Part shown: positions 3,255-44,781 of the stretch, one piece after another
How positions within the stretch are numbered: the first letter of the stretch is position 1
How the letters are laid out: each line of letters begins with the position of its first letter
From: a virus
Taxonomy: Duplodnaviria; Heunggongvirae; Uroviricota; Caudoviricetes
IMG/VR virus record: IMGVR_UViG_3300044675_001501
Span: 1 to 64,000 of that record
Reading direction: 5' to 3' (one strand)
DNA length: 64,000 nucleotides
Notes under the pieces: generated by a model
The model's database searches: none
What the model saw: only the letters and a program-made list of their open reading frames with translations
Told to the model about the DNA's origin: nothing
Program-made: the position numbers and the translations under genes

Positions 3255-4192
3255 TTGAATTTGCAATTTACCATTAGTTCAGTCAACGCTGCCATCATAT
3301 TTATTTCCTGATCAGCTACGAAAGCAGACTTGTACTGATAGTCTGCTAGGGTTACCACTAGCTGAGGGATAGATGATGGATCCATAATCTCAATTGCTTT
3401 GTCATAAAGATTACGGAAAATATGGGCAGTTCCCATATCAGCATTCTTACCAACCCAACGACGAATGTCTGTATACTTCTTCGTCTTTAGTAAATCTACA
3501 AGTTCTTTAAATGATTCATCACTAACATTCAGAAGAATACCAGAATCAATCTTACCTGAAACTGAATAACGCTGAAGTTCATTCAGAGTTCTACGGAAGT
3601 CTGGGAAATGTTTTGTGACGAGTTCAGCTACAACCTTAGAGTCAAACTCTACCTGTTCAGAAGATAGAATGTCAACAATACGCTTATAGAAAGCAGCTGC
3701 GATCTTTGGCTTCTCGCCATTGTCGATTTTAAAATCAACATTAATGCAGCGAGACTGAAGAGCATCAAGAAGACGATGCTTAAAATTACAAGTAAAGATG
3801 AAGCGGCAATTGCCAGCAAACTCTTCAATAAACGCACGCAATGCAGGTTGTACTGAGTCGGCATTCATATAATCAGCCTCATCAATAATAACAACCTTCT
3901 TTGCTTCTGTCAAAGAAACAGTTGAAGCAAAAGATTTAATAACAGTTCGGAGAGTGTCGATAGAACGACCTTCGTCCGAACCGTTAATCATCAAATATTC
4001 TGCGCCAACTTCATCACATAGTGCTTTTGCTACAGTAGTTTTACCAACACCAGCTGTTCCGCTGAAAATAAAATTAGGAAGTTCACCACTAGCGATGAAC
4101 TCCTTAAAAGTTTTCTTCAGAGATTCTGGTAAAATACAATCATCAATTTTCTGCGGACGATACTTCTCAACCCACAAATAGTGTTCACTCAT
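3251..4192 (-). CDS. gp44: clamp-loader large subunit gp44 (AAA+ ATPase)
   Basis: Contains the N-terminal WVEKYRP motif, Walker A GTAGVGKTT, Walker B IIDEAD and the SRC motif (LQSRC). Synteny with gp45 and gp62 supports the call. Confidence 0.92.
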   Translation of the reverse strand: MSEHYLWVEKYRPQKIDDCILPESLKKTFKEFIASGELPNFIFSGTAGVGKTTVAKALCDEVGAEYLMINGSDEGRSIDTLRTVIKSFASTVSLTEAKKVVIIDEADYMNADSVQPALRAFIEEFAGNCRFIFTCNFKHRLLDALQSRCINVDFKIDNGEKPKIAAAFYKRIVDILSSEQVEFDSKVVAELVTKHFPDFRRTLNELQRYSVSGKIDSGILLNVSDESFKELVDLLKTKKYTDIRRWVGKNADMGTAHIFRNLYDKAIEIMDPSSIPQLVVTLADYQYKSAFVADQEINMMAALTELMVNCKFK

Positions 4193-5198: not shown

Positions 5199-5227
5199 AT
5201 TATACCCCAGAAATGGGGTATAGTCAA
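5199..5227 (-). promoter_or_regulatory. sigma70-type early promoter (TTGACT-17-TATAAT) with stem-loop in the spacer
   Basis: The minus strand reads TTGACT, 17 nt, TATAAT. A 7-bp hairpin, TACCCCA-GAAA-TGGGGTA (5203-5220), fills the spacer. The promoter lies upstream of gp45. Confidence 0.65.
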
Positions 5228-5228
5228 A

Positions 5229-6026
5229 TTATTTTTGCATCATCAAAGCATTGAAGTTAGCAGGAACAACAATGGTCTGCACTCGACCATTCTTAATACC
5301 CTCAGAGATATTCAACGCAGCTTGAGCTTGCATAAAAGCAATAGAACTGGCAGAGTTATTGGCAAGAGCAGCCATACGCTCAGCTTCCTTCTTAGCAGTT
5401 TGAACCTCTACTTCTTTCTGCTTGTATTCATTCTTAGCACGAACCAAAGCATTAGCAGATTCAACAACACTGTCAGCTGGGACTACGTTACGAATTAAGA
5501 CTTGGCTAATTGTAATTGAACCATCAAGTTTTTCTTCAGCAAGATTCTTTTGAATCTCTTCTTGAATCATACGCTCCATATTCTCACGATTGTCTGCCAT
5601 ATCAAGTGCTTCATATTTACGAGCAGCTTTATAGATGGCATTACGAGCATTCTGAACAACGTAGTTATACATTACGTAGGTGTCACCCTTGAACTCAGCG
5701 TGGAATGCTTTGTTCTTAGTTGAGTAGAGTTCTGCTACAGTTTGTGGATTGATGTTGTAAACAACAACAGCATCTAGATCTTTCATAGTGCTATTATCTT
5801 TTGCTACTGGAGTCATATCCTGAAGGACTACGTTAACATCTTTCACTGGGAATGTCAAAACATCACCAATCATAGTTTGGTTAAAAGATCCAGGCAGCAA
5901 CTCTCCTGGTTTAACCTGCTTATCAAAGCCAACTCGAACACCAACCTCGCCTGTCTCAATACGAGTGCAGCCAGTAGCCAGAGCAACAGTAGCAACCAGA
6001 GCAGAGATTTTCAACATTTGTTTCAT
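5229..6026 (-). CDS. SPFH/band-7 (stomatin/prohibitin/HflK-C-like) lipoprotein
   Basis: The signal peptide carries a lipobox (ALVATVALATG-C). The body is SPFH-like (GEVGV...V.PG......V..D..V.V.Y.I), followed by a coiled-coil tail rich in A/E/K/Q. The start is probably ATG 6026, based on SD spacing. Confidence 0.8.
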   Translation of the reverse strand: MKQMLKISALVATVALATGCTRIETGEVGVRVGFDKQVKPGELLPGSFNQTMIGDVLTFPVKDVNVVLQDMTPVAKDNSTMKDLDAVVVYNINPQTVAELYSTKNKAFHAEFKGDTYVMYNYVVQNARNAIYKAARKYEALDMADNRENMERMIQEEIQKNLAEEKLDGSITISQVLIRNVVPADSVVESANALVRAKNEYKQKEVEVQTAKKEAERMAALANNSASSIAFMQAQAALNISEGIKNGRVQTIVVPANFNALMMQK

Positions 6027-6038
6027 GATCATTTTCCT

Positions 6039-6946: not shown

Positions 6947-7324
6947 TTAGACTTGGATACCGTTAGCACGAAGTTCTGCGGTAAACTCATCTTCATCGAT
7001 AGACACTGGCTCAGCGTCCTCGATAATTTTCTCGAGCTTCTTCTTAGCAGCAGCAGTTTGCTTAGCTACTGCATCTTTGACTGAACCTGTAGACTTCGGT
7101 CCAGGAAACGCAAAAACTCCACGCGAAATTGTGTTGTTAGCAGACAACCAAAGCGGATAACCAATTTTTGGAGCACCGTCGGTGCGCTTCTCATGAAGAT
7201 CCCAAAAAAGTTTTTGAACTTCTTTGGTCGTAATAGTCTCAGCCGAAGCAAGTTTCGGATTGAGAGAAATAAAAGCATCGATACAACGCTTTTGACCCTT
7301 AGACAAATCAGCATATTTCAGCAT
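6947..7324 (-). CDS. hypothetical protein sharing an N-terminal motif with the CobS-like ATPase
   Basis: A 125-aa ORF. The segment GYPLWLSANNTISRGVFAFPGP resembles KFPSWLMTNKVGRGLYAIPGG in the N-terminus of the neighbouring AAA+ protein. The C-terminal half is lysine- and alanine-rich, then acidic. Confidence 0.5.
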   Translation of the reverse strand: MLKYADLSKGQKRCIDAFISLNPKLASAETITTKEVQKLFWDLHEKRTDGAPKIGYPLWLSANNTISRGVFAFPGPKSTGSVKDAVAKQTAAAKKKLEKIIEDAEPVSIDEDEFTAELRANGIQV

Positions 7325-7379: not shown

Positions 7380-7408
7380 ATTATACCCCGACTGGGCATA
7401 AATGTCAA
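7380..7408 (-). promoter_or_regulatory. sigma70-type early promoter (TTGACA-17-TATAAT)
   Basis: Perfect -35 and -10 hexamers with a 17-nt spacer on the minus strand. A 6-bp hairpin, ATAACC/GGTTAT (7411-7435), lies just upstream. Confidence 0.75.
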
Positions 7409-7441: not shown

Positions 7442-7464
7442 CCTTTAAAATCAAGGACTTACAG
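7442..7464. repeat. 23-bp direct repeat, copy A (cctttaaaatcaaggacttacag)
   Basis: Identical to 11004-11026. Copy A overlaps the last codons and the stop of the CobS-like gene. Confidence 0.9.
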
Positions 7465-8614
7465 CCTCCCCTTCGGCTACAGGGGTTTCCACAGCGGCAG
7501 CTGAGGACTCTTCAACGTAATCGCCTGTCGAAACCTTTTCGAACAAGTCAACAAAGGCAAGGCGAGTAGCGTCATCAAATCGATTCGTGCAAAGTTCAAT
7601 TGCTTTCTTCTGATTCTTGAAGATCGCATAAGCACGAACGATGTGAATTAAACGGCGAGTAGTAATTGTTTCGTCAACACCACCAGCATCAAAAGTACGG
7701 CGAATAGCATCAGCCCACTTGACCATGTTCTCAGCAAACTTCTCATCAAAGCAACCGTAAGAAGTCATGAGATTAGTAACGATCTTCATCTCAGTACGCT
7801 GCTCAGGGTATTCCTGGTTGAAGGTAACAGCGAATCGCTCAAGAAATGCTTCGTTAAGAACATTGGTACCAATGTAACGACCATCTTCGCTACCCTTACC
7901 TTTTGTGTTTGCGGTAGCAAAAATATTGAAACCACGAGCAGGATAGATAAGTTCGTTTTTCAGTTTGAAGTAGAATGGCTTACCTTCAAGAATTGGCTGC
8001 AAGCACATCAGAGTATTTGAGTTACCAGCATCAATCTCATCAAGAAGCAGAGGAATACCAAGACGCATAGCAATAACGATTGGACCTTCAACGATTTCGA
8101 CATTACCATCGATCAAAGTCTTAGTGCCAATCAACTGATCTTCATCAGTCATGCTGTTAAAGTTAATACGAATCAGCGGACGCTTACGCTTTGCGCAAAT
8201 CTGCTCAATGCTGGTAGACTTACCGTTACCAGTTGGACCGCTGATGTAAGAAGGATAAAAGATCTCAGACTTGATAATCTCATCAAGATCTTTATAGTTA
8301 CCGAAGGGGACATAGTTAGGATCAACCTTCGGAATCAAAGATGAAGTGTCGCTATAATTCACAATAACATTCTCATTTTTTTCGGGAGCCAAAGCTGTAT
8401 TGCCAACAACTGGTGCTGTAATATTACCACCAGGAATAGCATACAAACCACGACCAACCTTGTTAGTCATAAGCCAAGAAGGAAACTTGTCAGTTCCGAA
8501 TGAAGTCATAACCTCAATCAATTGAGAGCGAGAAACGACACCCTTAGAAGAAACATCAGGGAACATCTCAAAAAGTTTGGTTTCAAACTCATCACGATAA
8601 GCAGCAGTAGTCAT
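7451..8614 (-). CDS. cobS: AAA+ ATPase, CobS-like / MoxR-like
   Basis: Contains Walker A GPTGNGKST and Walker B LLLDEID, with MoxR/CobS-type spacing. The start is probably ATG 8614, with GGAG 7 nt upstream. An N-terminal extension of about 90 aa precedes the ATPase core. Confidence 0.8.
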   Translation of the reverse strand: MTTAAYRDEFETKLFEMFPDVSSKGVVSRSQLIEVMTSFGTDKFPSWLMTNKVGRGLYAIPGGNITAPVVGNTALAPEKNENVIVNYSDTSSLIPKVDPNYVPFGNYKDLDEIIKSEIFYPSYISGPTGNGKSTSIEQICAKRKRPLIRINFNSMTDEDQLIGTKTLIDGNVEIVEGPIVIAMRLGIPLLLDEIDAGNSNTLMCLQPILEGKPFYFKLKNELIYPARGFNIFATANTKGKGSEDGRYIGTNVLNEAFLERFAVTFNQEYPEQRTEMKIVTNLMTSYGCFDEKFAENMVKWADAIRRTFDAGGVDETITTRRLIHIVRAYAIFKNQKKAIELCTNRFDDATRLAFVDLFEKVSTGDYVEESSAAAVETPVAEGEAVSP

Positions 8615-8647
8615 CAAAATCTCCATAATAAAATTTACTACAATTAA

Positions 8648-8676
8648 ATTATACTAGCATTGGCAATTAATGTCAA
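8648..8676 (-). promoter_or_regulatory. sigma70-type early promoter (TTGACA-17-TATAAT)
   Basis: Perfect hexamers with a 17-nt spacer, between the CobT-like stop and the CobS-like start. Confidence 0.75.
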
Positions 8677-8690
8677 GCAAAATGCAAACT

Positions 8691-10928
8691 TTATGCAACC
8701 AGCCCAACAAAGCGATTCAGAAGGATCCGATTTGTCTTCTGAACATTCAGATACTTGTTGAACGCTTTTGCAATTTGCTTGCTATTCATCTTGTCAGAAA
8801 CTTCCAAGTCTTCATCTTTAATTGCAAGTTTAGACGAAGGGATAATATACAGTTCATCACGACCACAGTTTGTAAGCATAGCGAAGTCATTCTTACGAAT
8901 TTCTTTTTGCATTGCTTCAACCGTAGCCATATCCTCAATAGAACCACCCTTAGCAGAAGTAACATTGTTACGAACAAACCAAGTTAGATCACGGCGAGAA
9001 TTTCTACCGATGTAGAAACCAACAGTAGTAGCGTTATATCGATCTTTGATAATCTGCAGGAACACATTAGTTTGTGTGCTAGATTCCTGAGTGATACGAT
9101 ATTCTTTCTTAGTAATTGGATCAACCAAGTAGTTAAGAACTTTACAACGCTTGTACTCTGGCTCATATACGGTAACGTATTCACGAAGAGACTTGTGATG
9201 ATTACCGTGAAGAGTTCCACCCTCGCCATCAGTCAAAGTAATAAATGTCAGTTTCTCGACATTGTTCTTTGACTTAAACTCAGCAAGATGGTTAGTCATA
9301 AACAGCAACGCTTCATTAAGCGGAGTGCTATTAAGAGTCAATCTAGAACTATAATAATAGAAATTAGAAAGACACATCTGAACCATCTTAGTAAATTCAC
9401 TGTTAGTCATTTTATCAGTGAACAACTCAAGAAGGTAAACATCGGCATTGGTAAAACCGTTGAACGATACATCAGTCTCATCAGGAACTCTGGTATAAGG
9501 ATCTTCTGGGTACAGAATATCACCACGTTCGTTTCTAGGATAACGATCGAAACCATTGCTAAATGCGTAGACACGGAAAGGAATCTGTGCACGCTGGCAG
9601 AACATAACCAGAGTAATAGTTTGCTTCAGCGTATCATGAATGTTATCATACATTGAACCAGACCAGTCAAGCAACATAACCATACCGTGATTCTTTGTAT
9701 CTTTAGTAACAGAGATACGCTTAAAGATGTCATCGGTCAACTGATACATCGCCAGTTTGTTTACGTTCAAATTACCAGTCTTAGAAATTTTACTACGACG
9801 ATAAGCAGTAGCTGACTTACGCATTTCAAATTCTTTGACTAGATAATTGACGATACGGCTACTTTCAGACTTGAATTGTTGAGCAGCTGTGGTCATTCTA
9901 TTAGCAGCTTCTGCTCGCTCCTTATTTCTGTCTGCGTCTGTCAAATAACGATTTGCGAAGTGACGATCGAAGTCTTCATCAAAAACTTTGAAGATTTCTT
10001 TATAAGGTACAACCTGATTGACGTCACGCAAATTGGCAGTCTTAGGTTCCCAACGCTGAACAATAGTATTCGTATCTGCTAGGTCTTGAAGGCGAACACG
10101 CAGGGCACGTTCTGTTTGCGACTCCATTTCAGTGGTAGTCGGTAAGGTAGAAGTATTCTGTGTGTTATCACCAGCAACAAAACGCTTGTTAGAACTGTCA
10201 GACTGTTCTTCATGTTCTGTTTCAGTATAGGGATCATACTCGCCGTCAAAGAAGATTTCATCTTCATCTTCATCTTCATCAACATCACCGAACTCAATTT
10301 CGGTATCGTAATTCATTTGCTCTTCGATATCATCGAGATCTTCTTGAGTGAGTTCTTTGTTGGAGTTGAGTTCTTCCTTACGCTTTTTCAATTCCTCATA
10401 AGAAAAGTTGTAAACTTCAAGAGCAAGATTCTGCACGTCTTTGATAGTGTCGCACTTGTCAACTCGGCGAACAAGTTCCATTTCTTGCGGTGTAAACTTA
10501 ACACCAGAGTTGATGCCAACTTTGTAATAGATGTTGATGCGGTCAATCAGCAAAAGTTTGCTGAGGTCTTTGTCTTTAACTTCAAAGAAGTCTTTGTCGT
10601 TGAGGTATTTGTATCCAGCAATAAAGCATTTACGCAAGCCAGGATACTTGTTCTTCATCATTTTTTCAATGCGAACATCTTCAATCACATTAAGATAACT
10701 GTGCATCTTGTGGTAGTTTTCTGTTTGAAGGTATTCTTGAGAAGTGAACAAAGCATGCCCAACCTCATGGGAAATGAGCATGTCCTCCACATCTTCGTTC
10801 ATTTCTTTCCAAAGAGGGAGGACTAGTGTACGACTGGTGATATCAAATGAAGCAGTAGTCGTTCTTGCGCGAACCACGTTCAGGTTCTCGGCTGCAAGAA
10901 GGCGAGCAAGCATGTCCTTACTATTCAT
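8691..10928 (-). CDS. VWA-domain protein with N-terminal HExxH metallopeptidase-like domain (CobT-like / DUF2201-like)
   Basis: HEVGH lies at 10755-10769 and is followed by NVIEDVRIE. An acidic low-complexity linker is present (DVDEDEDEDE). The MIDAS-like motif D-W-S-G-S-M lies at 9651-9668. The start is probably ATG 10928, because the track start is a TTG inside the SD region. Confidence 0.75.
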   Translation of the reverse strand: MNSKDMLARLLAAENLNVVRARTTTASFDITSRTLVLPLWKEMNEDVEDMLISHEVGHALFTSQEYLQTENYHKMHSYLNVIEDVRIEKMMKNKYPGLRKCFIAGYKYLNDKDFFEVKDKDLSKLLLIDRINIYYKVGINSGVKFTPQEMELVRRVDKCDTIKDVQNLALEVYNFSYEELKKRKEELNSNKELTQEDLDDIEEQMNYDTEIEFGDVDEDEDEDEIFFDGEYDPYTETEHEEQSDSSNKRFVAGDNTQNTSTLPTTTEMESQTERALRVRLQDLADTNTIVQRWEPKTANLRDVNQVVPYKEIFKVFDEDFDRHFANRYLTDADRNKERAEAANRMTTAAQQFKSESSRIVNYLVKEFEMRKSATAYRRSKISKTGNLNVNKLAMYQLTDDIFKRISVTKDTKNHGMVMLLDWSGSMYDNIHDTLKQTITLVMFCQRAQIPFRVYAFSNGFDRYPRNERGDILYPEDPYTRVPDETDVSFNGFTNADVYLLELFTDKMTNSEFTKMVQMCLSNFYYYSSRLTLNSTPLNEALLFMTNHLAEFKSKNNVEKLTFITLTDGEGGTLHGNHHKSLREYVTVYEPEYKRCKVLNYLVDPITKKEYRITQESSTQTNVFLQIIKDRYNATTVGFYIGRNSRRDLTWFVRNNVTSAKGGSIEDMATVEAMQKEIRKNDFAMLTNCGRDELYIIPSSKLAIKDEDLEVSDKMNSKQIAKAFNKYLNVQKTNRILLNRFVGLVA

Positions 10929-10959
10929 AATGTAGGTCTCCAAGTTTATTACAGTTAGA

Positions 10960-10988
10960 ATTATGCCCTATTTATGAATTAAAAGCAA
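10960..10988 (-). promoter_or_regulatory. sigma70-type early promoter (TTGCTT-17-CATAAT)
   Basis: Located in the intergenic region upstream of the CobT-like gene, with a 17-nt spacer. The hexamers are weaker than in the other promoters. Confidence 0.5.
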
Positions 10989-13069: not shown

Positions 13070-14133
13070 TAGACCACCTCAACATTAATTGCCTCAGTAT
13101 AAAGAGACTTCATATAAGTTTTGACTTTCTCTTTGTCAGTATCTGTTTGAACAGAGTCGATGTAATCATTTAGCAAATCAACAGTGTCCTCAAGATTTAT
13201 GTCTGACGAAACTGCGCCTTCATTGTATTCAGAGAAGTCTTCAATAATTTTGATCTCGGCGCATCCTTTATTATATAACTGTTGAAGGAATTGGTCAAAC
13301 TTGTAATAATCAGTCTTGTTAACAACTACAACTTTAACGAAACAATTTTTTAAGTCGAGTAGCGAAATGTCTTGGACTTCGCTGGTGTCGTCGTACTCGA
13401 ATCTTGTAAACATACTATAATCGTTTCTGATAAACTCGAGTTGTCTGGTCCCAAGGTCAAACAAGTGAAACCCTCTGGGATCGTTATAGTCCTGCCACGT
13501 GAGCTCATAAGGATTTCCGAGGTAAAAGATATGACCGTCGTTAGAGCGATGATGGTAATGACCACTGAATACCATATCAAATTTTTTGAATAGATCTTTT
13601 CCGAGTCCCTCATGAGATTCCATCCCTCTATACATTGCGAAGCCAGCAATCTCAAAGTGCCCCATACAAAGAGTTGCTGATGTGTTATTGATTTCATCCA
13701 TCGCTCTTTGATAGTTGTCTGCGCATATCCAAGGAATCATGCAAACATCGCAATCAATATCTTCATAGTTGAGATGAATTGTTTGTGGGGTGTCGATTAC
13801 GTTGATGTTGTCGTACTCTCTTAAGAGTAGATCTGGTGAGTTTACATCGTTGGTGTTTTTGTAATAAGTGTCGTGATTACCAGCAAGCATATGAACTTGA
13901 ATTTCTCGCTTGGCTAGTTCATCAAAGAACATTCTCTTTGCTCTGTCAAGAGCATAGAAATTTACATACTTACGTCGATCAAAAGTATCGCCAAGAATAA
14001 GAACAGTATTAATACCAGCTGCGTCAAGACTAGGAAAGAAAATATTGTCATAGAATTTTTGAAAAAAGTCTAGAAATAAAACACTGTCATTACGAGCACC
14101 AAAATGTTGGTCAGTTATAATAGCAACTTTCAT
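13069..14133 (-). CDS. gp47: recombination endonuclease subunit gp47 (Mre11/SbcD-like)
   Basis: Calcineurin-like phosphoesterase motifs are present: DQHFG, GD.FD, GNHD, GH and GH.H. Confidence 0.92.
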   Translation of the reverse strand: MKVAIITDQHFGARNDSVLFLDFFQKFYDNIFFPSLDAAGINTVLILGDTFDRRKYVNFYALDRAKRMFFDELAKREIQVHMLAGNHDTYYKNTNDVNSPDLLLREYDNINVIDTPQTIHLNYEDIDCDVCMIPWICADNYQRAMDEINNTSATLCMGHFEIAGFAMYRGMESHEGLGKDLFKKFDMVFSGHYHHRSNDGHIFYLGNPYELTWQDYNDPRGFHLFDLGTRQLEFIRNDYSMFTRFEYDDTSEVQDISLLDLKNCFVKVVVVNKTDYYKFDQFLQQLYNKGCAEIKIIEDFSEYNEGAVSSDINLEDTVDLLNDYIDSVQTDTDKEKVKTYMKSLYTEAINVEVV

Positions 14134-17823: not shown

Positions 17824-17831
17824 TATTTATA
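17824..17831 (-). promoter_or_regulatory. T4-type late promoter TATAAATA
   Basis: Exact TATAAATA on the minus strand, 27 nt upstream of the gp3-like ATG and immediately after the gp23 terminator. Confidence 0.6.
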
Positions 17832-20286: not shown

Positions 20287-20294
20287 TATTTATA
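20287..20294 (-). promoter_or_regulatory. T4-type late promoter TATAAATA
   Basis: Exact TATAAATA on the minus strand, 36 nt upstream of the gp22 ATG. Confidence 0.6.
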
Positions 20295-24474: not shown

Positions 24475-24482
24475 TATTTATC
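24475..24482 (-). promoter_or_regulatory. candidate late promoter (GATAAATA, NATAAATA class)
   Basis: Matches the ATAAATA core 30 nt upstream of the gp19 ATG and overlaps the gp18 stop. Confidence 0.4.
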
Positions 24483-26736: not shown

Positions 26737-26744
26737 TATTTATT
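26737..26744 (-). promoter_or_regulatory. candidate late promoter (AATAAATA, NATAAATA class)
   Basis: Lies in the 86-bp gap upstream of gp18. Confidence 0.35.
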
Positions 26745-30557: not shown

Positions 30558-33500
30558 TTATGCTTGTGATTCAGTCCAAGACAGACGGCAAGAAGCAGCG
30601 AACGTAGCAGCAGCAGTAACGTCAGAAGCTAGACCAATGTATCTCATACGTAGAGTCAATACGTCTGGACCGTCAGGGAATACACCGTTACCGCCCATAA
30701 TAGAGTTACCAAGAGTTGCAATTTCACGTAGGTCAATAGAGGTCAATGCTTGAGCTCTGTTGTTTGGTGTTGTCAACTGGTTTCCAGGTGGAACACGGAA
30801 CGAGAAGATAACAGAACCTTGGTCAATTGTGTCAGAAATGTTATGGTAAACAACCTGACTCAATGAAGGAGCAGTAACACGCTTCCAATCCAAGTTATCC
30901 AAGTCAGCATTCAGAACCAGAGACAATTCAATCTCGTGGGTTGAAAGAACGTCAAGAGCTTTCAAGTTCAATTGCATGCGGTTAATAATTTCTCTTTCTC
31001 CAAGTAATCCTGGAATACCATTATCAACAGAAGGCGATAGACGTAAAGACAATAGAGGAATTGTTTTAGTCAAATCAACAGCCTGTGAAACTGTATATGT
31101 AGTATTTGTCGCTTGGATAGAAGAAGGTCTTGCGTTAACAACCAATAAGTTTTTAAGAATATTAGATGTTGGAGAAACTCTGACCTGACGCAAATATGGT
31201 TGACTACCGATAGATGAGTTGGTTGGGTTTGCAGTTAATGTACCAGCAACAATACCATTTCCTGATATACCAGAATTAGCATTAATAGAAAAATATGTAT
31301 CTGCATGAGTAGGAATTTCAATAGCAAAACCAATTTCACCAATCAGCTTACCGCCATTGTTATAAGCATACCATTTTCCTAGTTCGAATGCGTTACCAGC
31401 TGTAACTCCACCAGCTGCGGCAAGACTTGGTGCTACTGCGGTACAAACAAAACTTGTTCCAACGTTGTTGTTTGCTGCTCCATATGAAGTCCAAGTTGTT
31501 GATCCTGCCGTATTAATTGTATAAGAACGACCGATAACTAAATTGTTTGCTGTAAAGGTTTGAGATACTGATGCTTGTGTTCCACCAGTAACGCTAATTG
31601 TGCCAGAAGTACCAGTAGAAGTACGAATCTGGTTAGAAGTAGCGGAGAACAAGTATGCTTTATCGTCATCGAAACCACCGTCCATAATAACGGAAGTACC
31701 CCAGTGTGCAAGTTTAGGTATAAAGGAAGGAGAAACGCCAGTATCAACCTCATAGCGAGCTGGCAGGTTACCCGAACGTAGGTACGCTTCTGTTTCTAAG
31801 TTGTTGTGGACAATTTGGTGTACGTATCTAACAACACCATCAGTAGTTTTAAATCCAAAACGAACTTTACCAGCGCCATACCAAGAATAGTCCATGTAAG
31901 CCATCTGAATCTTACGAATATCTAAAGTATATCCTGTTGGACCACTTCCATTACATACATCTAAATTCCAGCTTGATTGTGGAACTCTAATCTCATTAGT
32001 CTTACTTACTACAACATTAGTTGATGTAGAACCTCTATATGATGGTTGAACATAGAACGTATTGTTGTTTGGAATTTCAATAACTTTATATGATTGTCCT
32101 TTAATTACAACATAATCTCCAGAGACTAATTCTGTTACGTATTGTGTTCCTGTTCCTACAATTTGATTGCTGTTAAAAATAACACTTGCAGTTCCACCTA
32201 GCTGAACTGTAGAATTTCTTCTGCATACGCTAAGAGTCGAACCATTATATTCAAAGAACATACCATTTTGATCATCAAATAAACCACAACGAACTGTTGC
32301 GTTATTCCAAGAATTTACGTAGAATTGTGGGCGACCGCTGGAAACGTTGCTATATGGGAAATTCAAACTAATTCTAAATGAATAATCATCTATAATGTCA
32401 TAAATTGTGAACGATCCATTATAGGTAGATCCAGTATCCCCAGAAATAGTAATGTCTAGACCAGCAGTACATCTGTGAGGAACACGAGTAGTTACTGTTG
32501 CATAGTAGTTACTATTACCTGTAACTGAGTTAATAGGTACTGAAGGGCTGAAGTTAATAGCAAACGAAACTTGAATGCCTTTACCTGACTGATAACGGAA
32601 ATACTTACGAGTCTGACGAACAACACGTGCGTTCGGAGAATCTGTTGAGATTAATTCAACACCACCGTCATATGGTCTATGTAACGCTGATGAGTCAGCA
32701 CGCAACAATAGACTAGAAGTAACATCATAGGTGTTTGTTGCTGGGAATCCGTGACAGTTTATTGCGTTTACAGTAGAAGCTGTTGTTGTTGCTGGGATAG
32801 TTGCAGTCGCAGCAGCATTAGTTTGCATAGTAACAACAATAGAAGTGCTATTGCTACCAGCATTAGTTTTGACAATTAATGGAATATTGTCAATCTGAGT
32901 TGTATTACCAGTTCCTGTTAAAACAATGACAGAGCCAGCAGGGAATGGGCAAGGCATTGGGAAAGCGACAGTAATATCTGGGCTGGCGCTTGTTAGTGAT
33001 ATAGAAGTTACTGGCAATTTATATTGTTCATTAATTGGGATAGTATCAACTAAGTTTAACACAGTGCGTGAGTTGACTGTGCTAATTAGAGAAACACCAG
33101 TATTTCCAGGAACAATTAAAGAAACAGTGTGAACACCTGAACCACCAGAAGCAACGATCAAGTTAGTCCCATTTACTGCATCATTATAGGTAGGAGCTAA
33201 GTTGAAGTCGGCAGCTGACGCCCATCTTACATAGTAGATACCACCGTTAATTAGACCAGTTGGTGCAGCAACAGTAGAGTTCCAGCGTACAGACATGCCT
33301 GTCAACATACCGTGCGCAGCACTAGTAAATGTTGAAGAAACGAAAGTTGTTGTTTTTGCAGTGTAAACTGCTGGGTAATTCCAATAGAAGTTATCGCCAG
33401 ATTTAAACGCAGTTGAGAAGTTTGTGTTATTACCAACTACCTTAGTTGTTCCTGCTGCTAGTGCAATAGTACCAGCACCAACAATAGAACCAACAACAGA

Positions 33501-36500
33501 AGCTGCTTCAAATTGATGCGTTCCAGAACCCAAGAAGTTTCCGCTGTTTAAGTTAATTGGAACAACAATAGGATTAACAGCATCTGCTACTGTCGCAGCA
33601 AGTCTGAACCAATCTTCTGTTATTTTAATAATGTAGTATGTTGTATTACTAATTAATGGACCGAATGGTGTTCCTGATGCTGTATATAATACAGGAGTTC
33701 CTGTAATCAATTTGTGTCCGACGCTATAAATCGCATTCCAGTTAAAGTCGACATTAATCTGAGGATTAATACCTAGAACACGTTTAGGAACAACAGCATT
33801 GTTAGGATTATTAAGGGTAAATTTATTTGTTGCGCCACCAGGAGCATTATTTGCGACAGTATACAACCCATCAATGGCTCCAGTAGTAACCCCAGTAGTC
33901 ATTGTGTGGGATGCGCCAGTTCCTTCTGCTGTTATATCAACAACAGTTGATTGACGTAAAGAACCAGTTCCAGAAGGAGTTCCAACAAACTTCACACGAT
34001 CATCTGCGGTATTGTTAATCGCACCAAGTTGAGTCCAGTACAATGTACATGTCGTAGTAGAATCTGCACGAACGTAGTAGAACGCACCATTGGTTAGTCC
34101 TGTAGCTGGTGTTGCTGACAAATATTGAACTAGACGACCAGTAGTAAACCCATGAGTTCCAGTTGTAATAACACCAGTCGCAGTCGCTAAGTTGGTAGTA
34201 TTCTGCGTAAATGAAATCGCAGCAGTATCCCAACCTGTTAACGTATCAGCTAACTGGAATCTATCGGTAGTAGAATTGAAAACGAATTTAGTTGATCCGC
34301 TTGTTAGTCCTCCAACTTCAGAGCCACCACCTGTTGCGTATGTTACAGAGGTTCCATTGTTTAATCCATGATTTTGTTTATAGATGGTGTCGCCAGCGGT
34401 ATTCGATGCTCTTCTTGTGAAGTAATGATTATTTCCAACAAAAGATAGTTTTGCGCCGAGGAAATAAATTCTACCAACATCTGTGCCATTATTATATGCA
34501 GCAAAAGCAGAAGTGTTTAGAGGCTCAGTAGCTTCAGCATCTTTGTAAATTTCTAGTGTTGTAGATGTTGCTGATTTAGCATAATATATCTTATGATCCC
34601 ATAGAGCATACCAAGGAGAAGCTGGTGCAGCAAAACCTTGGAAGTGAATAGGAACAACTGCGCCAACAGGGACGCTGTGCGCTGCAGTCGTAGCAACCGC
34701 AGTAGAGTTACTGGTGAATGCAGTAATCGCAAGGATCTGAGGGTTCAATGCTGGAATTAGCTGAGAAGCAGTACCGTTTGTTGACACTGCTCCATTGGTT
34801 CCACTATTAGCATATGTGAACGTATTAAATGTAGCTTGTAAAATTACTGCAGTTGCATTGTTAAAGGTTGTGTCAGTAACAGAAGCAATAGCAACTTGTG
34901 TTCCAATTTTGAAACCATGAGGAACAGCAGTAGTAACTGTAGCTACGTTATTATCTCTACGAATAGAAGCAATATTTACGCTGTTCGATGGGAATGTATA
35001 TGTTATTGAATTTGTCTCACCAACAGTAATCGCTGTAATAGATCCTCGTTTTAGTGTAGTAGAAGGAATCTTTGTGATTTCAAAGTAATCAGTAATTTGT
35101 GAGCCAACAAGAGGGAAATATGAGTTATCTTTAGGGTGAGCCCAAACACTCTGCAACCAGCTTGTTCCAATAGCAAGGTTATCTTCATCGCGAACTCCAT
35201 GTCCTGTATCAATAACAACCTTCGCAGTAGATATTGTAGAGAATGTTCCTGGAAGACCTCCTGGAGTCATAACATAAACAATAACACTTAGTGCTGGCGC
35301 AGTTCCTGATACGGCTCCAACTCTAATATCATAAGCATTGAAACGAGAATCTCCGATATATGTTAACTCCGCAGTGCCATCAGAAACCGCACCACTTGTG
35401 TGAGAAGGCGCTGATGTGCTGGTTGTTCCAGCAACAGAAACATTGTATAAATTATTATTCCAGAAAACTTTTTGGTTTAGTGTTAACGCAGTATTTGGAC
35501 CCCATGGTGTACCCATTTTTAGTGGTTGGTTATTTGCGTCAAAGAACTTGATTAAACCGCCATGGTGTGCAACGTTGGCTAAAGCGCTACCTCCTGCGAT
35601 ACGTGCTGCTGAAGTAAACGTGAATGTATTAGCACCAGCAGTAATAGTTGGAACTACAATGTTTGCTGTAGTTGACCATGCAGAAGATGGATACGAAATC
35701 GTCATCGATGTTCCACCAGAAGCCACAGCTGCAGTTTTCCAATTCCAATATGCGGTGTCAAATGTTGTGTTAACATTTGTTAGTGTCTTATCTGCAAATG
35801 CGTTAGCTGTATCTAAATGCGCACCAGCAGCGCTTGTTACTGCCAGAGCAGATCCAGCATCAGAAAGAAGTTTAAATCTATCTGTGGTTGCAGAGTCAAC
35901 AATAAAGTATGATCTATTTGTTAAACCAGTAGGAACAGAAGCTGCGGCTTGGGTTCCACCTGATGCCTCCCAGAAAACCAATTCTCCGTTTTGGAATCCG
36001 TGAGACTTAGAATACCAAGATCTACCAGTAGACCATGGTTGTGTATAGTTAATAGGAACAACATATCCATCAACAGAAGTGCCACTAAGAGTTAAATTAG
36101 ATCCACTAACAGTTGTTGACAAATTGAATGTTAGAATATCTGAACTTGCTGAACCATAGAGATCAAAACCAACATTATTGGTTTGAACTGCAAGAGAATT
36201 GTTTAATGGATTTTTAAGTTTAATTGTTAAAGTTCTAGTTGTTGTTCCTGTGTGGTTGGTTATCATACCAACTGGATTTACTGTAGAACCTGGGAATTCA
36301 CCAAAAGGGCTAACCTCATATGATTGATACAATCCAGTATTATTTCTTAAAACAATCTGGTGTCCTTTCGGAGTATTTCTTAGAGGAGTTCCTGTGAACA
36401 GTGCGCCAGCGTTTGATGCGGTAGCAAGAGTGAATGTTGCACCACCTTGCGTAGAGCTTAAAGTGATATCTGCGCTACTTTCGATAGTTTTAACATAATA

Positions 36501-39500
36501 CGTTGTGCCAGAAACAATATTACCGAAAGATGCACCTACAGTGAATGGTTGATTAACTGCAAGACCTTGAGTTGTATGTAGCGTTAGTCTATTAGTTCCA
36601 GCTGTGGTGTTTGTTGCAATAGTTGTTACGTTTGTAGCGCCAAGGAATCCTGACATGACGTCAGTCTTAACTACTGGTAATGGTCCATACGAATAGCAAG
36701 AAACACGCTGAGCTGAAGTAGTAGATAGAGTTGCTAAAGCCCCACCACGAGTAGTAGAAACTGTAAGTGTTGTTCCAGAAAGAACGCTTACAATGTAATA
36801 AAGTTGTCCAGAAGATAATCCACCAACGCTGGCATCAACTTCAAACATCTGACCAGCTTTCATACCAGTAGTGCTTGACACAGTAATTACGTTCGTTGTT
36901 ACAGCAGTGCCAGTAATTGTAGTAAATGCACCCTCATCAAAAGTTAATGATAATGTTGCAGCGTCTTGAGCCGCAAGAGCGATGGTGCCGATTGCGCCAT
37001 CAAGTTCTCCATTCGGACCACTATAACTAGAAAAATTTGCATTACCTGGAGCACTGTTAGATCCATTGGTTGCGCCGAAGGGTAAGGTTACTTGTGATTG
37101 GTGCGTGTCAGAATTTGGATTTCTGGCATACACAATGTTTGGCAATTGAGCTGGTGTCCAGTTATTAGTGAATGCTGTAGTTCCACCAATAGCAGTAGTC
37201 CATACAGCTAAAGGTTGGTTATCTAAAATCGCAGAATTGAGAGTATCTAAACACTGGACAAACATTGTTCCAGAAGCTGTTTGATAGTCATGAACTCTAG
37301 CTGCAGCCATAAAGGAATGTGGACCAAATCTATCTGTAGCAAGAGGGAATCTAGATGCAGCTGCTTGTACACCGAAGTTAACTGAAAGAGCAGTTCTTCT
37401 GTTTGCTTGTGTAACTAATACGCACTGTGTTGTCGAATCTGTAATAATAGTGCCGATTTGAGCAGTAAACGAAGCAGCAGTAGCAGTACCCATTGCTACT
37501 GGATTTGTAAACTGTTTAGGTGTAGCACTAGAATCGTTTACATCAGTAGTTGGTGTATCAGAAATTGTAATCTGAGTGCCAGACAAAACGTCTTTGACGT
37601 AGTATGTAGTATTTCCAAGAATACCAGCAAGGCTACCGTTAGCAGTACCAGTACCAGATGCTGCTCCATTAGTTGCGGCAGTGAATGTTGAACCAACAGC
37701 ATAAGTTACGCCAGATGTTCCAGCAATAGTATTCCACTGAGGTTGTGTAGTTGTTCCAAGAGCAGCAATAGTGTATTGCTGTCCTACAGTAAAATGACCT
37801 GCAGATACTGTTGGACCTTGAATGTGAGTGCTTAGATATGGGGTTACTGCAGTTCCTGGCACGAAACGAATTGCCATACCTGGAGTCATGTTTGCAGTAG
37901 CTGCTACAGTAACAATATTTCTCTCAGCGTTTAGGGAGTTACCGCTGATCACTGGAATGTTCAAGTAGCGATTAATTGTATAAGTACCAGCTGCTCCTGT
38001 ACCAGTGCCTCTTGCAGTAATGTAAGTTCCTGCTGGTACATGTCCATTAGTATCTGACAGATATGCTCCAAGGTCGAATGCAGTACCTGTTACAGTAGCG
38101 TTAACTGTCAATACGTTTCCTGAAATAGAGAACGAGGTTGTGCTACCTGTTTGGTTTAATGTTGCAGTGCCTGTTGTTGTGTTACCGTTATAGAATCCAG
38201 GTTTAGTTCTTACATAATAAACTGTAGGCGCAGTAATTTGCGATCCACCAATAGTAAGACCGCCATTTAGAGCACCCATGTTGTATAGGTATGGTCTATT
38301 ATCGATAAGACCATGAGAAGAAGCGAAAGTAATTACATTGGCTCTCGTTGAAGCGATGTAGTTTGTATCGTTTACACCTTTATGCTCAAGTAGATCTGCT
38401 GCGTTTTTACCCAATGTGAAAAATAAAGTTGGGCGAGATGCTCCAGCTGGGTTGAAGTTATACTTCTCAGCTGTCCATGTATATGGGTTAAATTTAGATG
38501 TGTTGTCTAGATCTAAAGAGTTTTCTGAGTAGCCGTTAGAAGATGATACGGTTTCGTTAGAAGAAGTTGTTCTGATAAACAACTGTCTCTTCCAGCTCTG
38601 CTGTGGATCTAAGAATACATCACCAGTGAATGTTGCATTAACAGCTTCGTTGTTTGGACCTCTAATACTAAAAGTTAAACTAGATAGAGAATAATTTACT
38701 AAATCTGCTTTTATTAATCTAGCATCAATTGTATCGTTTTCGCAGTCAAATGTTACTTCCCAGATTATTGTAGTATTAGTTGATCCGTCTTGAAACTCTT
38801 TACCTTCCCATCTAATTCTAAGGCTGGTAGTTGTTGTTGAAAAATAAAGTTTCTTAAGATTAAAGTCCCCAGTTAAGAAGTTAATCTTTGGAGAATATGT
38901 ATTGTTATTATCAACGCCATTCCAAGCAGCAACATCAACAGCAGGACCATTACCAATTACGCTTGTGCTATTTGTAAAGTGAATAGTCGAATTAGATGTT
39001 ACCCAAACACGGTCAAAGGTTTGGTCGAAAATTTTAAACGGCATTGATTCTGGGAATAGTACTCTGTAAACACCCTCATCAATACCAACGTTTGATGTTG
39101 TTGCATCACCATCAATAATTAATGTCATACCCAGAGTTCCTGGGTCTGTAATGCCAGAAGTTCCAAAGGTTACGTATGCTTTGTCTGTATAACCATTGTT
39201 ATCAGTAACTACAGCATCATCTGTTCTTAGTATTGCTTGGTTTTCAGTGTAAATTAAAGAAGTAACTAATGTTGAATCGAATGTAATCTGCTGCGATGTT
39301 AGGCTGTTTAGAAGAATAAATGTAGTGCCAATAGCAAATCCATGTGGACCATTGGTTGTAATTGTAATAGTAGATGGGCTTTCTCCATCTGTTGCGATCG
39401 CGCCAAGAGATTCTAACTTAAATTCAGTTCCTTGGTATAATGATGCAAGATAAATTTCTGTAGAGCTTTCTCTTACAGAACCTGTAATTGGTGATGTTCT

Positions 39501-39899
39501 TCTTGCTCTGTATGTAAACGATGTTGATGATGGAGTTGTTAAAACAACGTATGTACCGTCAGCAAACTGTAGATTAGCACCTTTAACAATAATTGAGTTA
39601 CCAACAACAAGACCATGATCCTCAGAAGTGGTAACTGTGATCGTGTTGCTTCCTGAGATTGCAGTCATTGTTAAAATGCTTAAACTCAAAGAACCATCTC
39701 GAGCAAAGAAAGTAGGAATATTATTGATGAGCTCTAAAGTTTCCCACTTTGAAGATTGCAAACCGTATTCGAAGTCAGTATCAATTAAGTTAGATGGCTC
39801 AGAGACACGCATCTTAGACACTGGGTCATAGATGGTCTCATTAGGTTCAATATAAACTGAACCAGCGATTCTGTTTGCTTTTAATACGTCAAGAGACAT
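30558..39899 (-). CDS. giant virion structural protein, paralog A (3113 aa; baseplate/tail-fibre associated)
   Basis: An uninterrupted 9.3-kb ORF. It has at least 10 HG(F/L)xxGxx(V/I) ... YYV ... F.LA modules. Its N-terminal motif (DPVSKMRVSEPSNLIDTDFEYGLQSSKWE) and its C-terminal 709 aa are homologous to ORF 45419-55813. Confidence 0.8.
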   Translation of the reverse strand: MSLDVLKANRIAGSVYIEPNETIYDPVSKMRVSEPSNLIDTDFEYGLQSSKWETLELINNIPTFFARDGSLSLSILTMTAISGSNTITVTTSEDHGLVVGNSIIVKGANLQFADGTYVVLTTPSSTSFTYRARRTSPITGSVRESSTEIYLASLYQGTEFKLESLGAIATDGESPSTITITTNGPHGFAIGTTFILLNSLTSQQITFDSTLVTSLIYTENQAILRTDDAVVTDNNGYTDKAYVTFGTSGITDPGTLGMTLIIDGDATTSNVGIDEGVYRVLFPESMPFKIFDQTFDRVWVTSNSTIHFTNSTSVIGNGPAVDVAAWNGVDNNNTYSPKINFLTGDFNLKKLYFSTTTTSLRIRWEGKEFQDGSTNTTIIWEVTFDCENDTIDARLIKADLVNYSLSSLTFSIRGPNNEAVNATFTGDVFLDPQQSWKRQLFIRTTSSNETVSSSNGYSENSLDLDNTSKFNPYTWTAEKYNFNPAGASRPTLFFTLGKNAADLLEHKGVNDTNYIASTRANVITFASSHGLIDNRPYLYNMGALNGGLTIGGSQITAPTVYYVRTKPGFYNGNTTTGTATLNQTGSTTSFSISGNVLTVNATVTGTAFDLGAYLSDTNGHVPAGTYITARGTGTGAAGTYTINRYLNIPVISGNSLNAERNIVTVAATANMTPGMAIRFVPGTAVTPYLSTHIQGPTVSAGHFTVGQQYTIAALGTTTQPQWNTIAGTSGVTYAVGSTFTAATNGAASGTGTANGSLAGILGNTTYYVKDVLSGTQITISDTPTTDVNDSSATPKQFTNPVAMGTATAASFTAQIGTIITDSTTQCVLVTQANRRTALSVNFGVQAAASRFPLATDRFGPHSFMAAARVHDYQTASGTMFVQCLDTLNSAILDNQPLAVWTTAIGGTTAFTNNWTPAQLPNIVYARNPNSDTHQSQVTLPFGATNGSNSAPGNANFSSYSGPNGELDGAIGTIALAAQDAATLSLTFDEGAFTTITGTAVTTNVITVSSTTGMKAGQMFEVDASVGGLSSGQLYYIVSVLSGTTLTVSTTRGGALATLSTTSAQRVSCYSYGPLPVVKTDVMSGFLGATNVTTIATNTTAGTNRLTLHTTQGLAVNQPFTVGASFGNIVSGTTYYVKTIESSADITLSSTQGGATFTLATASNAGALFTGTPLRNTPKGHQIVLRNNTGLYQSYEVSPFGEFPGSTVNPVGMITNHTGTTTRTLTIKLKNPLNNSLAVQTNNVGFDLYGSASSDILTFNLSTTVSGSNLTLSGTSVDGYVVPINYTQPWSTGRSWYSKSHGFQNGELVFWEASGGTQAAASVPTGLTNRSYFIVDSATTDRFKLLSDAGSALAVTSAAGAHLDTANAFADKTLTNVNTTFDTAYWNWKTAAVASGGTSMTISYPSSAWSTTANIVVPTITAGANTFTFTSAARIAGGSALANVAHHGGLIKFFDANNQPLKMGTPWGPNTALTLNQKVFWNNNLYNVSVAGTTSTSAPSHTSGAVSDGTAELTYIGDSRFNAYDIRVGAVSGTAPALSVIVYVMTPGGLPGTFSTISTAKVVIDTGHGVRDEDNLAIGTSWLQSVWAHPKDNSYFPLVGSQITDYFEITKIPSTTLKRGSITAITVGETNSITYTFPSNSVNIASIRRDNNVATVTTAVPHGFKIGTQVAIASVTDTTFNNATAVILQATFNTFTYANSGTNGAVSTNGTASQLIPALNPQILAITAFTSNSTAVATTAAHSVPVGAVVPIHFQGFAAPASPWYALWDHKIYYAKSATSTTLEIYKDAEATEPLNTSAFAAYNNGTDVGRIYFLGAKLSFVGNNHYFTRRASNTAGDTIYKQNHGLNNGTSVTYATGGGSEVGGLTSGSTKFVFNSTTDRFQLADTLTGWDTAAISFTQNTTNLATATGVITTGTHGFTTGRLVQYLSATPATGLTNGAFYYVRADSTTTCTLYWTQLGAINNTADDRVKFVGTPSGTGSLRQSTVVDITAEGTGASHTMTTGVTTGAIDGLYTVANNAPGGATNKFTLNNPNNAVVPKRVLGINPQINVDFNWNAIYSVGHKLITGTPVLYTASGTPFGPLISNTTYYIIKITEDWFRLAATVADAVNPIVVPINLNSGNFLGSGTHQFEAASVVGSIVGAGTIALAAGTTKVVGNNTNFSTAFKSGDNFYWNYPAVYTAKTTTFVSSTFTSAAHGMLTGMSVRWNSTVAAPTGLINGGIYYVRWASAADFNLAPTYNDAVNGTNLIVASGGSGVHTVSLIVPGNTGVSLISTVNSRTVLNLVDTIPINEQYKLPVTSISLTSASPDITVAFPMPCPFPAGSVIVLTGTGNTTQIDNIPLIVKTNAGSNSTSIVVTMQTNAAATATIPATTTASTVNAINCHGFPATNTYDVTSSLLLRADSSALHRPYDGGVELISTDSPNARVVRQTRKYFRYQSGKGIQVSFAINFSPSVPINSVTGNSNYYATVTTRVPHRCTAGLDITISGDTGSTYNGSFTIYDIIDDYSFRISLNFPYSNVSSGRPQFYVNSWNNATVRCGLFDDQNGMFFEYNGSTLSVCRRNSTVQLGGTASVIFNSNQIVGTGTQYVTELVSGDYVVIKGQSYKVIEIPNNNTFYVQPSYRGSTSTNVVVSKTNEIRVPQSSWNLDVCNGSGPTGYTLDIRKIQMAYMDYSWYGAGKVRFGFKTTDGVVRYVHQIVHNNLETEAYLRSGNLPARYEVDTGVSPSFIPKLAHWGTSVIMDGGFDDDKAYLFSATSNQIRTSTGTSGTISVTGGTQASVSQTFTANNLVIGRSYTINTAGSTTWTSYGAANNNVGTSFVCTAVAPSLAAAGGVTAGNAFELGKWYAYNNGGKLIGEIGFAIEIPTHADTYFSINANSGISGNGIVAGTLTANPTNSSIGSQPYLRQVRVSPTSNILKNLLVVNARPSSIQATNTTYTVSQAVDLTKTIPLLSLRLSPSVDNGIPGLLGEREIINRMQLNLKALDVLSTHEIELSLVLNADLDNLDWKRVTAPSLSQVVYHNISDTIDQGSVIFSFRVPPGNQLTTPNNRAQALTSIDLREIATLGNSIMGGNGVFPDGPDVLTLRMRYIGLASDVTAAATFAASCRLSWTESQA

Positions 39900-39926: not shown

Positions 39927-39934
39927 TTATTTAT
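39927..39934 (-). promoter_or_regulatory. candidate late promoter (CATAAATA, NATAAATA class)
   Basis: Lies 27 nt upstream of the ATG of giant paralog A and overlaps the upstream stop codon. Confidence 0.35.
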
Positions 39935-44773: not shown

Positions 44774-44781
44774 TATTTATT
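44774..44781 (-). promoter_or_regulatory. candidate late promoter (AATAAATA, NATAAATA class)
   Basis: Lies in the 26-bp gap upstream of ORF 44418-44756. Confidence 0.3.

Follow-up and report, generated by a model that had tools for sequence, protein, structure and literature searches.

Do phages that carry cobS together with a cobT-like gene boost cobalamin synthesis in their hosts, or does this gene pair do something else? Phage cobS, one of the core genes of cyanomyoviruses, is as a rule listed in marine viromics among the auxiliary metabolic genes for vitamin B12, and it is widely used as a marker in ocean surveys; its function has been stated to be unknown (PMC9983427). The question is raised here by a marine tailed-phage sequence (Caudoviricetes), positions 1 to 64,000 of the IMG/VR record IMGVR_UViG_3300044675_001501, analysed as one stretch of 64,000 nucleotides (hereafter the window). 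On its minus strand, the gene of a 745-residue protein with a C-terminal VWA domain (hereafter the VWA protein) is followed by the gene of a CobS-like AAA+ ATPase. On balance, the two would form a two-component, ATP-driven machine for protein remodelling and proteolysis and probably not a cobaltochelatase, a reading held with moderate confidence. As part of it, the N-terminal zincin domain of the VWA protein, a divergent CobT-superfamily protein, is predicted to be still an active-type metallopeptidase. The elements in question are the following.

8691..10928, minus strand: gene of the VWA protein, an intact open reading frame (ORF) of 745 residues (PHROG 459 'peptidase'; CobT-superfamily, zincin-linker-VWA)
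10359..10928, minus strand: N-terminal zincin domain (minigluzincin/M48-like), residues 1-190; helix, three-stranded sheet, helices
10755..10769, minus strand: HEVGH, predicted zinc-binding and catalytic motif, residues 54-58 (sequence motif)
10665..10691, minus strand: NVIEDVRIE, 'glutamate-helix' motif with the candidate third metal ligand, residues 80-88
10149..10358, minus strand: acidic, disordered and poorly conserved linker, residues ~191-260 (from composition, predicted local distance difference test (pLDDT) and conservation)
9696..9803, minus strand: segment ahead of the MIDAS (adhesion site dependent on a metal ion), residues 376-411, conserved yet disordered in the monomer model; putative equivalent of the CobT 'shaft'
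8829..9689, minus strand: VWA domain with insertions, residues ~414-700 (Foldseek, hhalign)
9654..9668, minus strand: MIDAS D-x-S-x-S (DWSGS), residues 421-425 (sequence motif; DWSGSM spans 421-426)
7451..8626, minus strand: gene of the partner, a CobS-like MoxR-class AAA+ ATPase of 391 residues (AAA_5, CbbQ_C, phrog_249)

The VWA gene starts at an ATG preceded by a GGAG Shine-Dalgarno sequence, and an alternative upstream TTG (8691-10943) would give a protein of 750 residues. A preliminary description of the locus named the HExxH residues H59, E60 and H63; the residues were correctly chosen, but their numbering fits the TTG version and not the 745-residue protein, in which they are H54, E55 and H58. 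Its outline of the domains was borne out: a protein of about 745 residues with an HExxH motif and a downstream glutamate, a poly-acidic linker (the most acidic 40-residue window, starting at residue 185, is 52.5% aspartate and glutamate), a C-terminal VWA domain with a MIDAS, and a MoxR-class AAA+ partner. Given the composition of the protein, 0.016 HExxH and 0.18 DxSxS motifs would be expected by chance. The protein belongs to a very large family (6793 homologues among 8000 candidates scored; 3825 clusters at 50% identity). It matches the phrog_459 profile over the full length (E=5.4e-186; residues 7-750 of the 750-residue version against positions 5-736 of 736), and tblastn retrieved 464 phage records, 411 of them at a coverage of at least 80% and mostly annotated 'peptidase'. 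The sequence is a divergent one, with 30-35% identity to the proteins of S-SSM5, P-SSM2 and HTVC008M and at most 35% to that of any isolate phage, the nearest isolates for both proteins of the pair being cyanophages and pelagiphages; no nucleotide-level relative of the window was found among 50,697 phage records.

Conservation in the VWA protein is highest at the residues of HExxH, N..ED.RIE and MIDAS. Conservation was counted in an alignment of 268 full-length homologues, down to ~32% identity, which includes the proteins of S-SSM5, HTVC008M and Ochrobactrum phage OC. H54, E55, N80, E83, D84, R86, G97, D421, S423 and S425 are present in 268/268, while H58 and two further MIDAS residues, T535 and D567, are kept in 267/268 and E88 in 261/268. 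Column conservation is 0.22-0.32 in the linker and 0.62-0.72 in the pre-MIDAS segment, where G385, K391, D400 and F402 are invariant in alignment A1.

The relationship to CobT is genuine but distant. At E<=1, no Pfam model matches the VWA protein or its homologues from S-SSM5 and Ochrobactrum phage OC, and M48, DUF2201 (PF09967/PF13203), CobT and CobT_C are all without a match to the window protein at that threshold. For comparison, true CobT was represented by the cobS-cobT pair carried on a plasmid of Sphingomonas, in which CobT reaches 287 bits against Pfam CobT (PF06213) and 349 bits against CobT_C (PF11775), and a second group, called here CobT-related, by a protein of an Acinetobacter phage-plasmid (36.7 bits for CobT and 150 bits for CobT_C, both above threshold). 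CobT-related proteins thus pass the two Pfam thresholds that the phage clade fails. In hhalign, the phage family aligns with the CobT-related family at 99.1% (E=4e-19) over 405 columns, from the N-terminus through MIDAS, and the CobT-related family aligns with true CobT at 99.9% (E=3e-31). The direct comparison of the phage family with true CobT is colinear but weak (E=0.0018-0.02), partly because the true-CobT profile consists of near-identical Sphingomonas sequences and is low in diversity; homology therefore rests on the transitive link via the CobT-related family. The VWA domain of the window protein also aligns with a CobT_C-positive plasmid protein (93%, E=2e-7), and the pre-MIDAS segment aligns with a G-x-L-[DN]-x-x-[KR/S]-L segment of CobT-related proteins and true CobT. 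These profile alignments place the phage protein within the CobT superfamily, as a divergent member outside the curated CobT families.

Authentic CobT has an M48C-like N-domain, a disordered linker of ~90 residues, a 'shaft' and a VWA domain; the shaft, Q373-D414, inserts into the CobS ring, and the MIDAS is formed by D422, S424 and S426 (bioRxiv 10.64898/2026.07.21.739949). The window protein is colinear with it almost residue by residue (376-411 for the shaft, D421 for D422) and has in common with it the N-domain of a helix, a three-stranded sheet and further helices, the acidic disordered linker and the CobS-type AAA+ partner. The preliminary description had taken the HExxH-type domain as an argument against a cobaltochelatase. 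That argument fails: an M48-like N-domain is normal CobT architecture, and because authentic CobT has the same layout, a peptidase-like fold by itself says nothing against CobT. The colinearity of N-domain, acidic linker, shaft position and MIDAS in truly homologous proteins in fact speaks for the cobalamin explanation, in which the phage pair would be a working CobS-CobT that joins host CobN and boosts cobalt insertion and B12-dependent nucleotide synthesis.

What sets the proteins apart in these alignments is the state of the motif: phage and mobile-element proteins have it intact, and true CobT has it in degenerate form. Aligned with the phage HEVGH are HEVAH in the CobT-related group and, in true CobT, FADxF as part of RGFADxFALRL, so that true CobT has RGFADxFA where the phage protein has HExxH. 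HExxH was counted in 267/268 phage proteins, 100/120 CobT-related proteins and 0/121 true CobT sequences, a constraint that a chelatase role does not explain. A helix motif, E-x-x-R-[IV]-E...[YF]-x-G, is common to all three groups, reading NVIEDVRIEKMMKNKYPG in the phage proteins, NiLEDaRIEK...G in the CobT-related proteins and AVETARIEALGARGYAG in true CobT. The HExxH, NxLEDxRIE and MIDAS of the window protein recur in the CobT-related proteins that accompany MoxR ATPases on phage-plasmids and IncC plasmids; unlike the window protein, some CobT-related members lack the histidines (QEVAK). The QEVAK of the bridging protein from Acinetobacter had suggested that HExxH was phage-specific, which was ruled out by its presence in 100 of the 120 relatives. 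This pattern of conservation suggests that the CobT lineage, with its non-proteolytic job, lost the catalytic motif, whereas the mobile-element lineages have held HExxH, including the general-base glutamate. On this ground, and not through the mere presence of the domain on which the preliminary description relied, its remodelling or proteolytic reading can be upheld.

Structure prediction agrees with a zincin. The full-length AlphaFold model (pLDDT 76.5) begins with a helix followed by a three-stranded sheet and a bundle of helices (1-190), continues with a disordered acidic stretch (~192-259), a strand and long helices (271-384) and a low-confidence segment (376-411), and ends with the VWA domain; pLDDT falls below 50 in the linker (203-259) and ahead of MIDAS (376-378 and 380-411). 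The N-domain model reaches a pLDDT of 91.3 and resembles zincin proteases in structure comparison, with matches to the ArdC protease domain (8.4), proabylysin (7.4), projannalysin (7.2) and selecase (7.2), followed by ZMPSTE24 (6.9), BlaR1 (6.9), CapP (6.1), BepA (6.1), Spartan (5.9) and an M48 peptidase (3c37; 5.8). A fold is thus held in common with minigluzincins, M48 (Ste24, HtpX, BepA) and M56 (BlaR1) peptidases and the ArdC-Spartan-Wss1 proteins, and the likeness extends to HExxH on the first long helix after the three-stranded sheet and acidic residues on the next helix. In the model, HEVGH (54-58) lies in helix 45-61, the first long helix past the sheet, and E83, D84 and E88 lie in helix 72-94, a modelled placement that is the gluzincin arrangement. 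The N-domain accordingly combines a zincin-like model with an invariant motif, HExxH standing on the active-site helix and a candidate acidic ligand downstream, on the next one. DUF2201_N plus DUF2201 proteins likewise have a zincin followed by a VWA-like domain, often beside a MoxR ATPase. The resemblance to DUF2201 noted earlier is an analogy in domain logic, the window protein being without a PF13203 or PF09967 match.

The VWA domain has a recognizable, Rossmann-like VWA fold with solved relatives. Foldseek against the PDB gave the MIDAS domain of MDN1 (8ql1, E=1.3e-4) and NorD of NorQD (9qhe, E=1.4e-4) as best matches, followed by CMG2, integrins and many other VWA domains; sequence searches of the PDB with the VWA protein (phmmer and profile) returned no match. 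Both MDN1 and NorD partner MoxR-class rings. With NorQ-NorD, MDN1 (midasin), RavA-ViaA, CoxD-CoxE and ATV p618-p892, the window pair would share the general mechanism of MIDAS-client remodelling by a MoxR-class ring, at ~10% sequence identity and with the difference that the VWA subunits of those systems lack a zincin. Full-length fold relatives in BFVD come from the Gordonia phages GMA3 and GMA7, Haloarcula tailed viruses, Thermus phage P74-26 and many uncultured Caudoviricetes, and are variously annotated as CobT-like, VWFA or cobalamin biosynthesis proteins.

The partner gene lies directly downstream of the VWA gene across a 64-bp gap. Its product matches AAA_5 (E=8e-16, 58.8 bits) and CbbQ_C, the CbbQ/NorQ C-terminal lid (E=4e-5, 24.3 bits), both above cutoff, as well as phrog_249 'porphyrin biosynthesis' (E=5e-102); its translation shows a Walker A (GPTGNGKST) and a Walker B (LLLDEID) motif, and there is an N-terminal extension of ~85 residues. 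It is ~51% identical to the 'CobS' of HTVC008M. The best NCBIfam match is CobS (TIGR01650, E=1.7e-30), which favours a cobalamin function, but its 106.3 bits stay below the cutoff of 558.55, and CobS_N (PF12556), matched by true CobS, was not found in the window ATPase by Pfam. ATPase and VWA protein together therefore fail the curated CobS, CobT and CobT_C thresholds. Neither protein matched the PADLOC anti-phage defence models at E<=0.01.

A 27-residue motif, P-x-W-L-x-x-N...R-G-x-[YF]-A-x-P-G, is common to the N-terminal extension of the ATPase (8408-8485, minus strand; residues 48-73) and the following 125-residue ORF 6947-7324 (7079-7159, minus strand; residues 56-82) (BLASTP E=4e-5). A small ORF likewise lies 3' of the ATPase gene in three metagenomic relatives of the locus (L006-L008), with 125 residues in L006 and L007 and 163 in L008, and is followed there by a gene of winged helix-turn-helix size (84-87 residues; HTH_39 in the window and L006) and then by a dGTP_diPhyd_N gene. 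The small ORF behind the ATPase gene might encode a third partner of the pair.

The company that the pair keeps is that of DNA replication and recombination. Its neighbours in the window are genes of a T4-type sliding clamp (gp45), SbcCD-like gp46/gp47 and the late sigma factor gp55, which identify the source of the window as a T4-like phage. All the related loci examined keep the order gp47-gp46-[VWA]-[ATPase]-...-gp45, namely the window, S-SSM5, HTVC008M, Ochrobactrum phage OC (where the VWA homologue is annotated CobT) and the three metagenomic relatives. The cyanophage and pelagiphage core pair of a 'peptidase' (T4-GC146/PHROG 459) and 'cobS' (T4-GC150/PHROG 249) is of the same family and has the same gp47-gp46-peptidase-cobS-gp45 synteny, differing from the window pair in sequence divergence alone.

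Relatives of the module are also found on plasmids and phage-plasmids. On the IncC plasmid pECO17386 of E. coli (L009, 738-8731), the ATPase and VWA genes flank ssb-bet-exo and a DUF3150 gene, so that they are parted by ssb-bet-exo where those of the window adjoin; the ATPase is 26.5% identical to that of the window (E=1.6e-28), and the VWA protein has HEAAH, NVLEDCRIE and DMSSS, thus keeping HExxH. On an Acinetobacter phage-plasmid (L005, 2496-10735), the module stands beside dnaE. Altogether, homologues of the module occur in ~1,900 plasmid records, including SSU5-like phage-plasmids. Among these records are also Yersinia pestis plasmids of ~100 kb, where the annotation is 'porphyrin biosynthesis protein'. 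In phages, on phage-plasmids and on IncC plasmids alike, the pair is thus surrounded by genes for replication and recombination.

An early-type (sigma-70) promoter consensus stands upstream of each of the two genes.

8648..8676, minus strand: perfect sigma-70 consensus TTGACA-17-TATAAT (12/12 matches) before the ATPase gene, in the 64-bp gap
10960..10988, minus strand: weaker element of sigma-70 type, TTGCTT-17-CATAAT, upstream of the VWA gene (consensus match)

TTGAC(A/T)-17-(T/A)ATAAT occurs at the same place upstream of the ATPase gene in L006, L007 and L008, and the block CTTGCyTTTAATTCA-N8-GGCATAATT upstream of the VWA gene is kept in the window and its two closest relatives, L006 and L007. 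A second perfect TTGACA-17-TATAAT lies at 7380-7408 (minus strand), before the 125-residue ORF 6947-7324, and 11/12 matches to the sigma-70 consensus lie at 13270-13298 and 5199-5227.

How such a machine might work can be modelled on the general MoxR-VWA mechanism (PMC7159879) and on the solved CobS-CobT complex. By analogy with the latter, the ATPase would form a hexameric ring; residues ~376-411, ahead of the VWA domain, would insert into the pore of the ring, and the zincin would dock on the ATPase lid domain. The MIDAS of the VWA domain may then capture an acidic residue of a client protein, and ATP hydrolysis, passed via the shaft and the acidic linker, would reshape it. The client would sit between the VWA and zincin domains, in the place taken by CobN in the chelatase, and hence within cutting reach of HExxH. 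For the client, the most reasonable guess is some protein of host or phage with a part, early or midway in infection, in DNA replication, recombination or takeover of the host; such are the genes that accompany the pair in three unrelated kinds of mobile element.

Several points weigh against proteolytic remodelling. The literature on phage and plasmid CobS/CobT-like pairs yielded no experimental study, and peptidase activity, zinc binding or a client is not reported for any member of the family. The invariant HExxH could be a structural or regulatory metal site. The geometry of the complex is carried over from a distant homologue described in a preprint, the neighbourhood argument is one of guilt by association, and the promoters were assigned by consensus matching alone. 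Moreover, the pair may have a chelatase-type role in cyanobacterial hosts, since the protein is truly CobT-homologous and these hosts reportedly have CobN without CobST.

The metal-site objection leads to an alternative in which the pair is a pure chaperone. Here MoxR-VWA remodelling or assembly would proceed with the zincin docked on the ATPase lid, and HExxH would hold a structural or regulatory metal without cutting. The documented role of the N-domain in CobST is to bind the CobS small domain and CobN, and the CobT structure preprint makes no mention of zinc (bioRxiv 10.64898/2026.07.21.739949); many MoxR-VWA systems operate without a protease (PMC7159879), and some CobT-related proteins, a minority to which the Acinetobacter protein with QEVAK belongs, persist without the histidines. 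The conservation described above does not fit well with this view: the general base E55 is retained in all 268 homologues, together with both histidines (but for the single H58 substitution) and the E83/D84 helix, which is a pattern typical of catalysis more than of metal binding alone, and in true CobT, the lineage known to work without proteolysis, the motif has decayed. A chaperone without protease activity is thus plausible in principle and unlikely on present evidence.

A bolder extension of proteolytic remodelling can also be formulated. Across T4-like phages, phage-plasmids, IncC plasmids and possibly SXT-type elements, an ancient two-gene module would act as an ATP-driven, MIDAS-targeted protease at establishment or replication, CobT would be its domesticated dead-protease descendant, and phage cobS would be unrelated to cobalamin. 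It may act, for example, by removing a defence factor, or else a host protein that stands in the way of replication or recombination of the incoming DNA. Taken as a whole, this scenario is speculative and has a rather low probability.

A further possibility is that the pair serves virion assembly, as a chaperone that also proteolytically processes structural proteins of head or tail. It was proposed for the jumbo-phage pair on the model of Acidianus two-tailed virus, whose tail development requires a MoxR-VWA pair (Iyer et al. 2021, PMC7824862). In the window, it would be favoured by the core of T4-type late promoters, ATAAATA, of which there are 10 copies on the coding (minus) strand and 0 on the plus strand.

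3298-3304, 10969-10975, 17824-17830, 20287-20293 and 24475-24481, minus strand: ATAAATA copies
26737-26743, 39928-39934, 44467-44473, 44774-44780 and 60248-60254, minus strand: remaining ATAAATA copies

Nine of the 10 copies are intergenic, and 6 lie 27-67 bp upstream of ORF starts. The motif is rarer than in shuffled sequence (10 observed, 19.5 expected) and is apparently avoided outside probable gp55-dependent promoters. The copy at 10969-10975 lies 41 bp upstream of the VWA start codon, inside the spacer of the sigma-70-like element. As evidence of late, morphogenesis-linked expression this copy was rejected, the motif being absent there in L001-L003 and L006-L008 and the sigma-70-like element being conserved in the two closest relatives (L006 and L007); the ATPase gene, moreover, has a perfect early-type consensus. 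The pair is always found in a replication/recombination module and occurs also on IncC plasmids, conjugative elements that form no virions. Gene context and promoter type thus tip the balance somewhat towards early or middle action in replication, recombination or takeover of the host and away from virion assembly, and assembly as the function of the pair is doubtful.

The cobalamin explanation has been argued in the literature. Viral CobST was proposed to hijack host CobN, and the 'peptidase' annotation was considered a mistake (Liu et al. 2021, PMC8651126). Hosts often have CobN and lack CobST, as do cyanobacterial hosts according to work cited there, and this counts in favour of the explanation, as does the place of the pair in the cyanophage core gene set, cyanophage hosts being producers of pseudocobalamin. 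The doubts that the preliminary description cast on a cobalamin role are nevertheless justified by the failed curated models and by the host range of the pair, which is conserved in the Pelagibacter (SAR11) phage HTVC008M. SAR11 is genomically a B12 auxotroph (PMC9296465), so that the host of HTVC008M, unable to make B12, would offer no corrin substrate. The pair is also present on enterobacterial IncC plasmids and SSU5-like phage-plasmids, and its neighbours are replication and recombination genes, not metabolic ones. CobST works with CobN, and a CobN/Mg-chelatase H model had no match in the four window ORFs of at least 1000 residues, whereas the other ORFs, all below 750 residues, were not individually scanned; the earlier statement that no CobN-like subunit is present stands for these four ORFs. 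With HExxH missing from all true CobT sequences and almost invariant in the phage proteins, a cobalamin function of the window pair is improbable.

Proteolytic remodelling by such a pair has been described before. A MoxR-vWA pair with an N-terminal metallopeptidase was reported in T4-like jumbo phages, and a combination of chaperone and proteolysis was proposed (Iyer et al. 2021, PMC7824862: Iyer, Anantharaman, Krishnan, Burroughs, Aravind). As far as its published description allows a comparison, the pair of group 2.2 (T4-like) jumbo phages (ASV44729.1/ASV44728.2) has the same architecture as the window pair and carries the same functional idea, with the difference that virion assembly is favoured there and that context and promoters of the window point to an early or middle function. 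The family has also been labelled 'peptidase' in GenBank cyanophage genomes since ~2010 (T4-GC146) and in PHROGs. The locus is therefore a divergent new member of an already known family, and the finding is confirmatory and not a discovery, both the main idea and the 'peptidase' label having been published before. New are the comparison of the motif across three groups, the statistics for the transitive homology and the observation that the module recurs next to replication and recombination genes in three kinds of mobile element. If the pair is a protease-bearing remodelling machine, metabolic inferences about B12 that are drawn from phage cobS would be wrong, and one of the most abundant viral gene pairs of the ocean, with relatives on phage-plasmids and on the clinically important IncC plasmids, would have another, probably essential role. 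The contrast between the intact and the degenerate motif provides a testable handle and gives an evolutionary reading of the M48-like domain in the CobT structure.

Some other genes of the window can be described briefly. Between the dGTP_diPhyd_N gene and gp45, ORF 5229-6032 (minus strand) encodes an SPFH/Band_7 protein (PF01145, E=2e-19; phrog_200 'lipoprotein') with a lipoprotein-like N-terminus, and it has the same place in L007. Two giant ORFs, 30558-39899 (3113 residues) and 45419-55813 (3464 residues), both on the minus strand, gave no significant Pfam match and one sub-threshold match to E1_FCCH, and ORFs of 1183 and 1045 residues had no Pfam match. Presumably, the 3113-, 3464-, 1183- and 1045-residue products are structural or fibre proteins.

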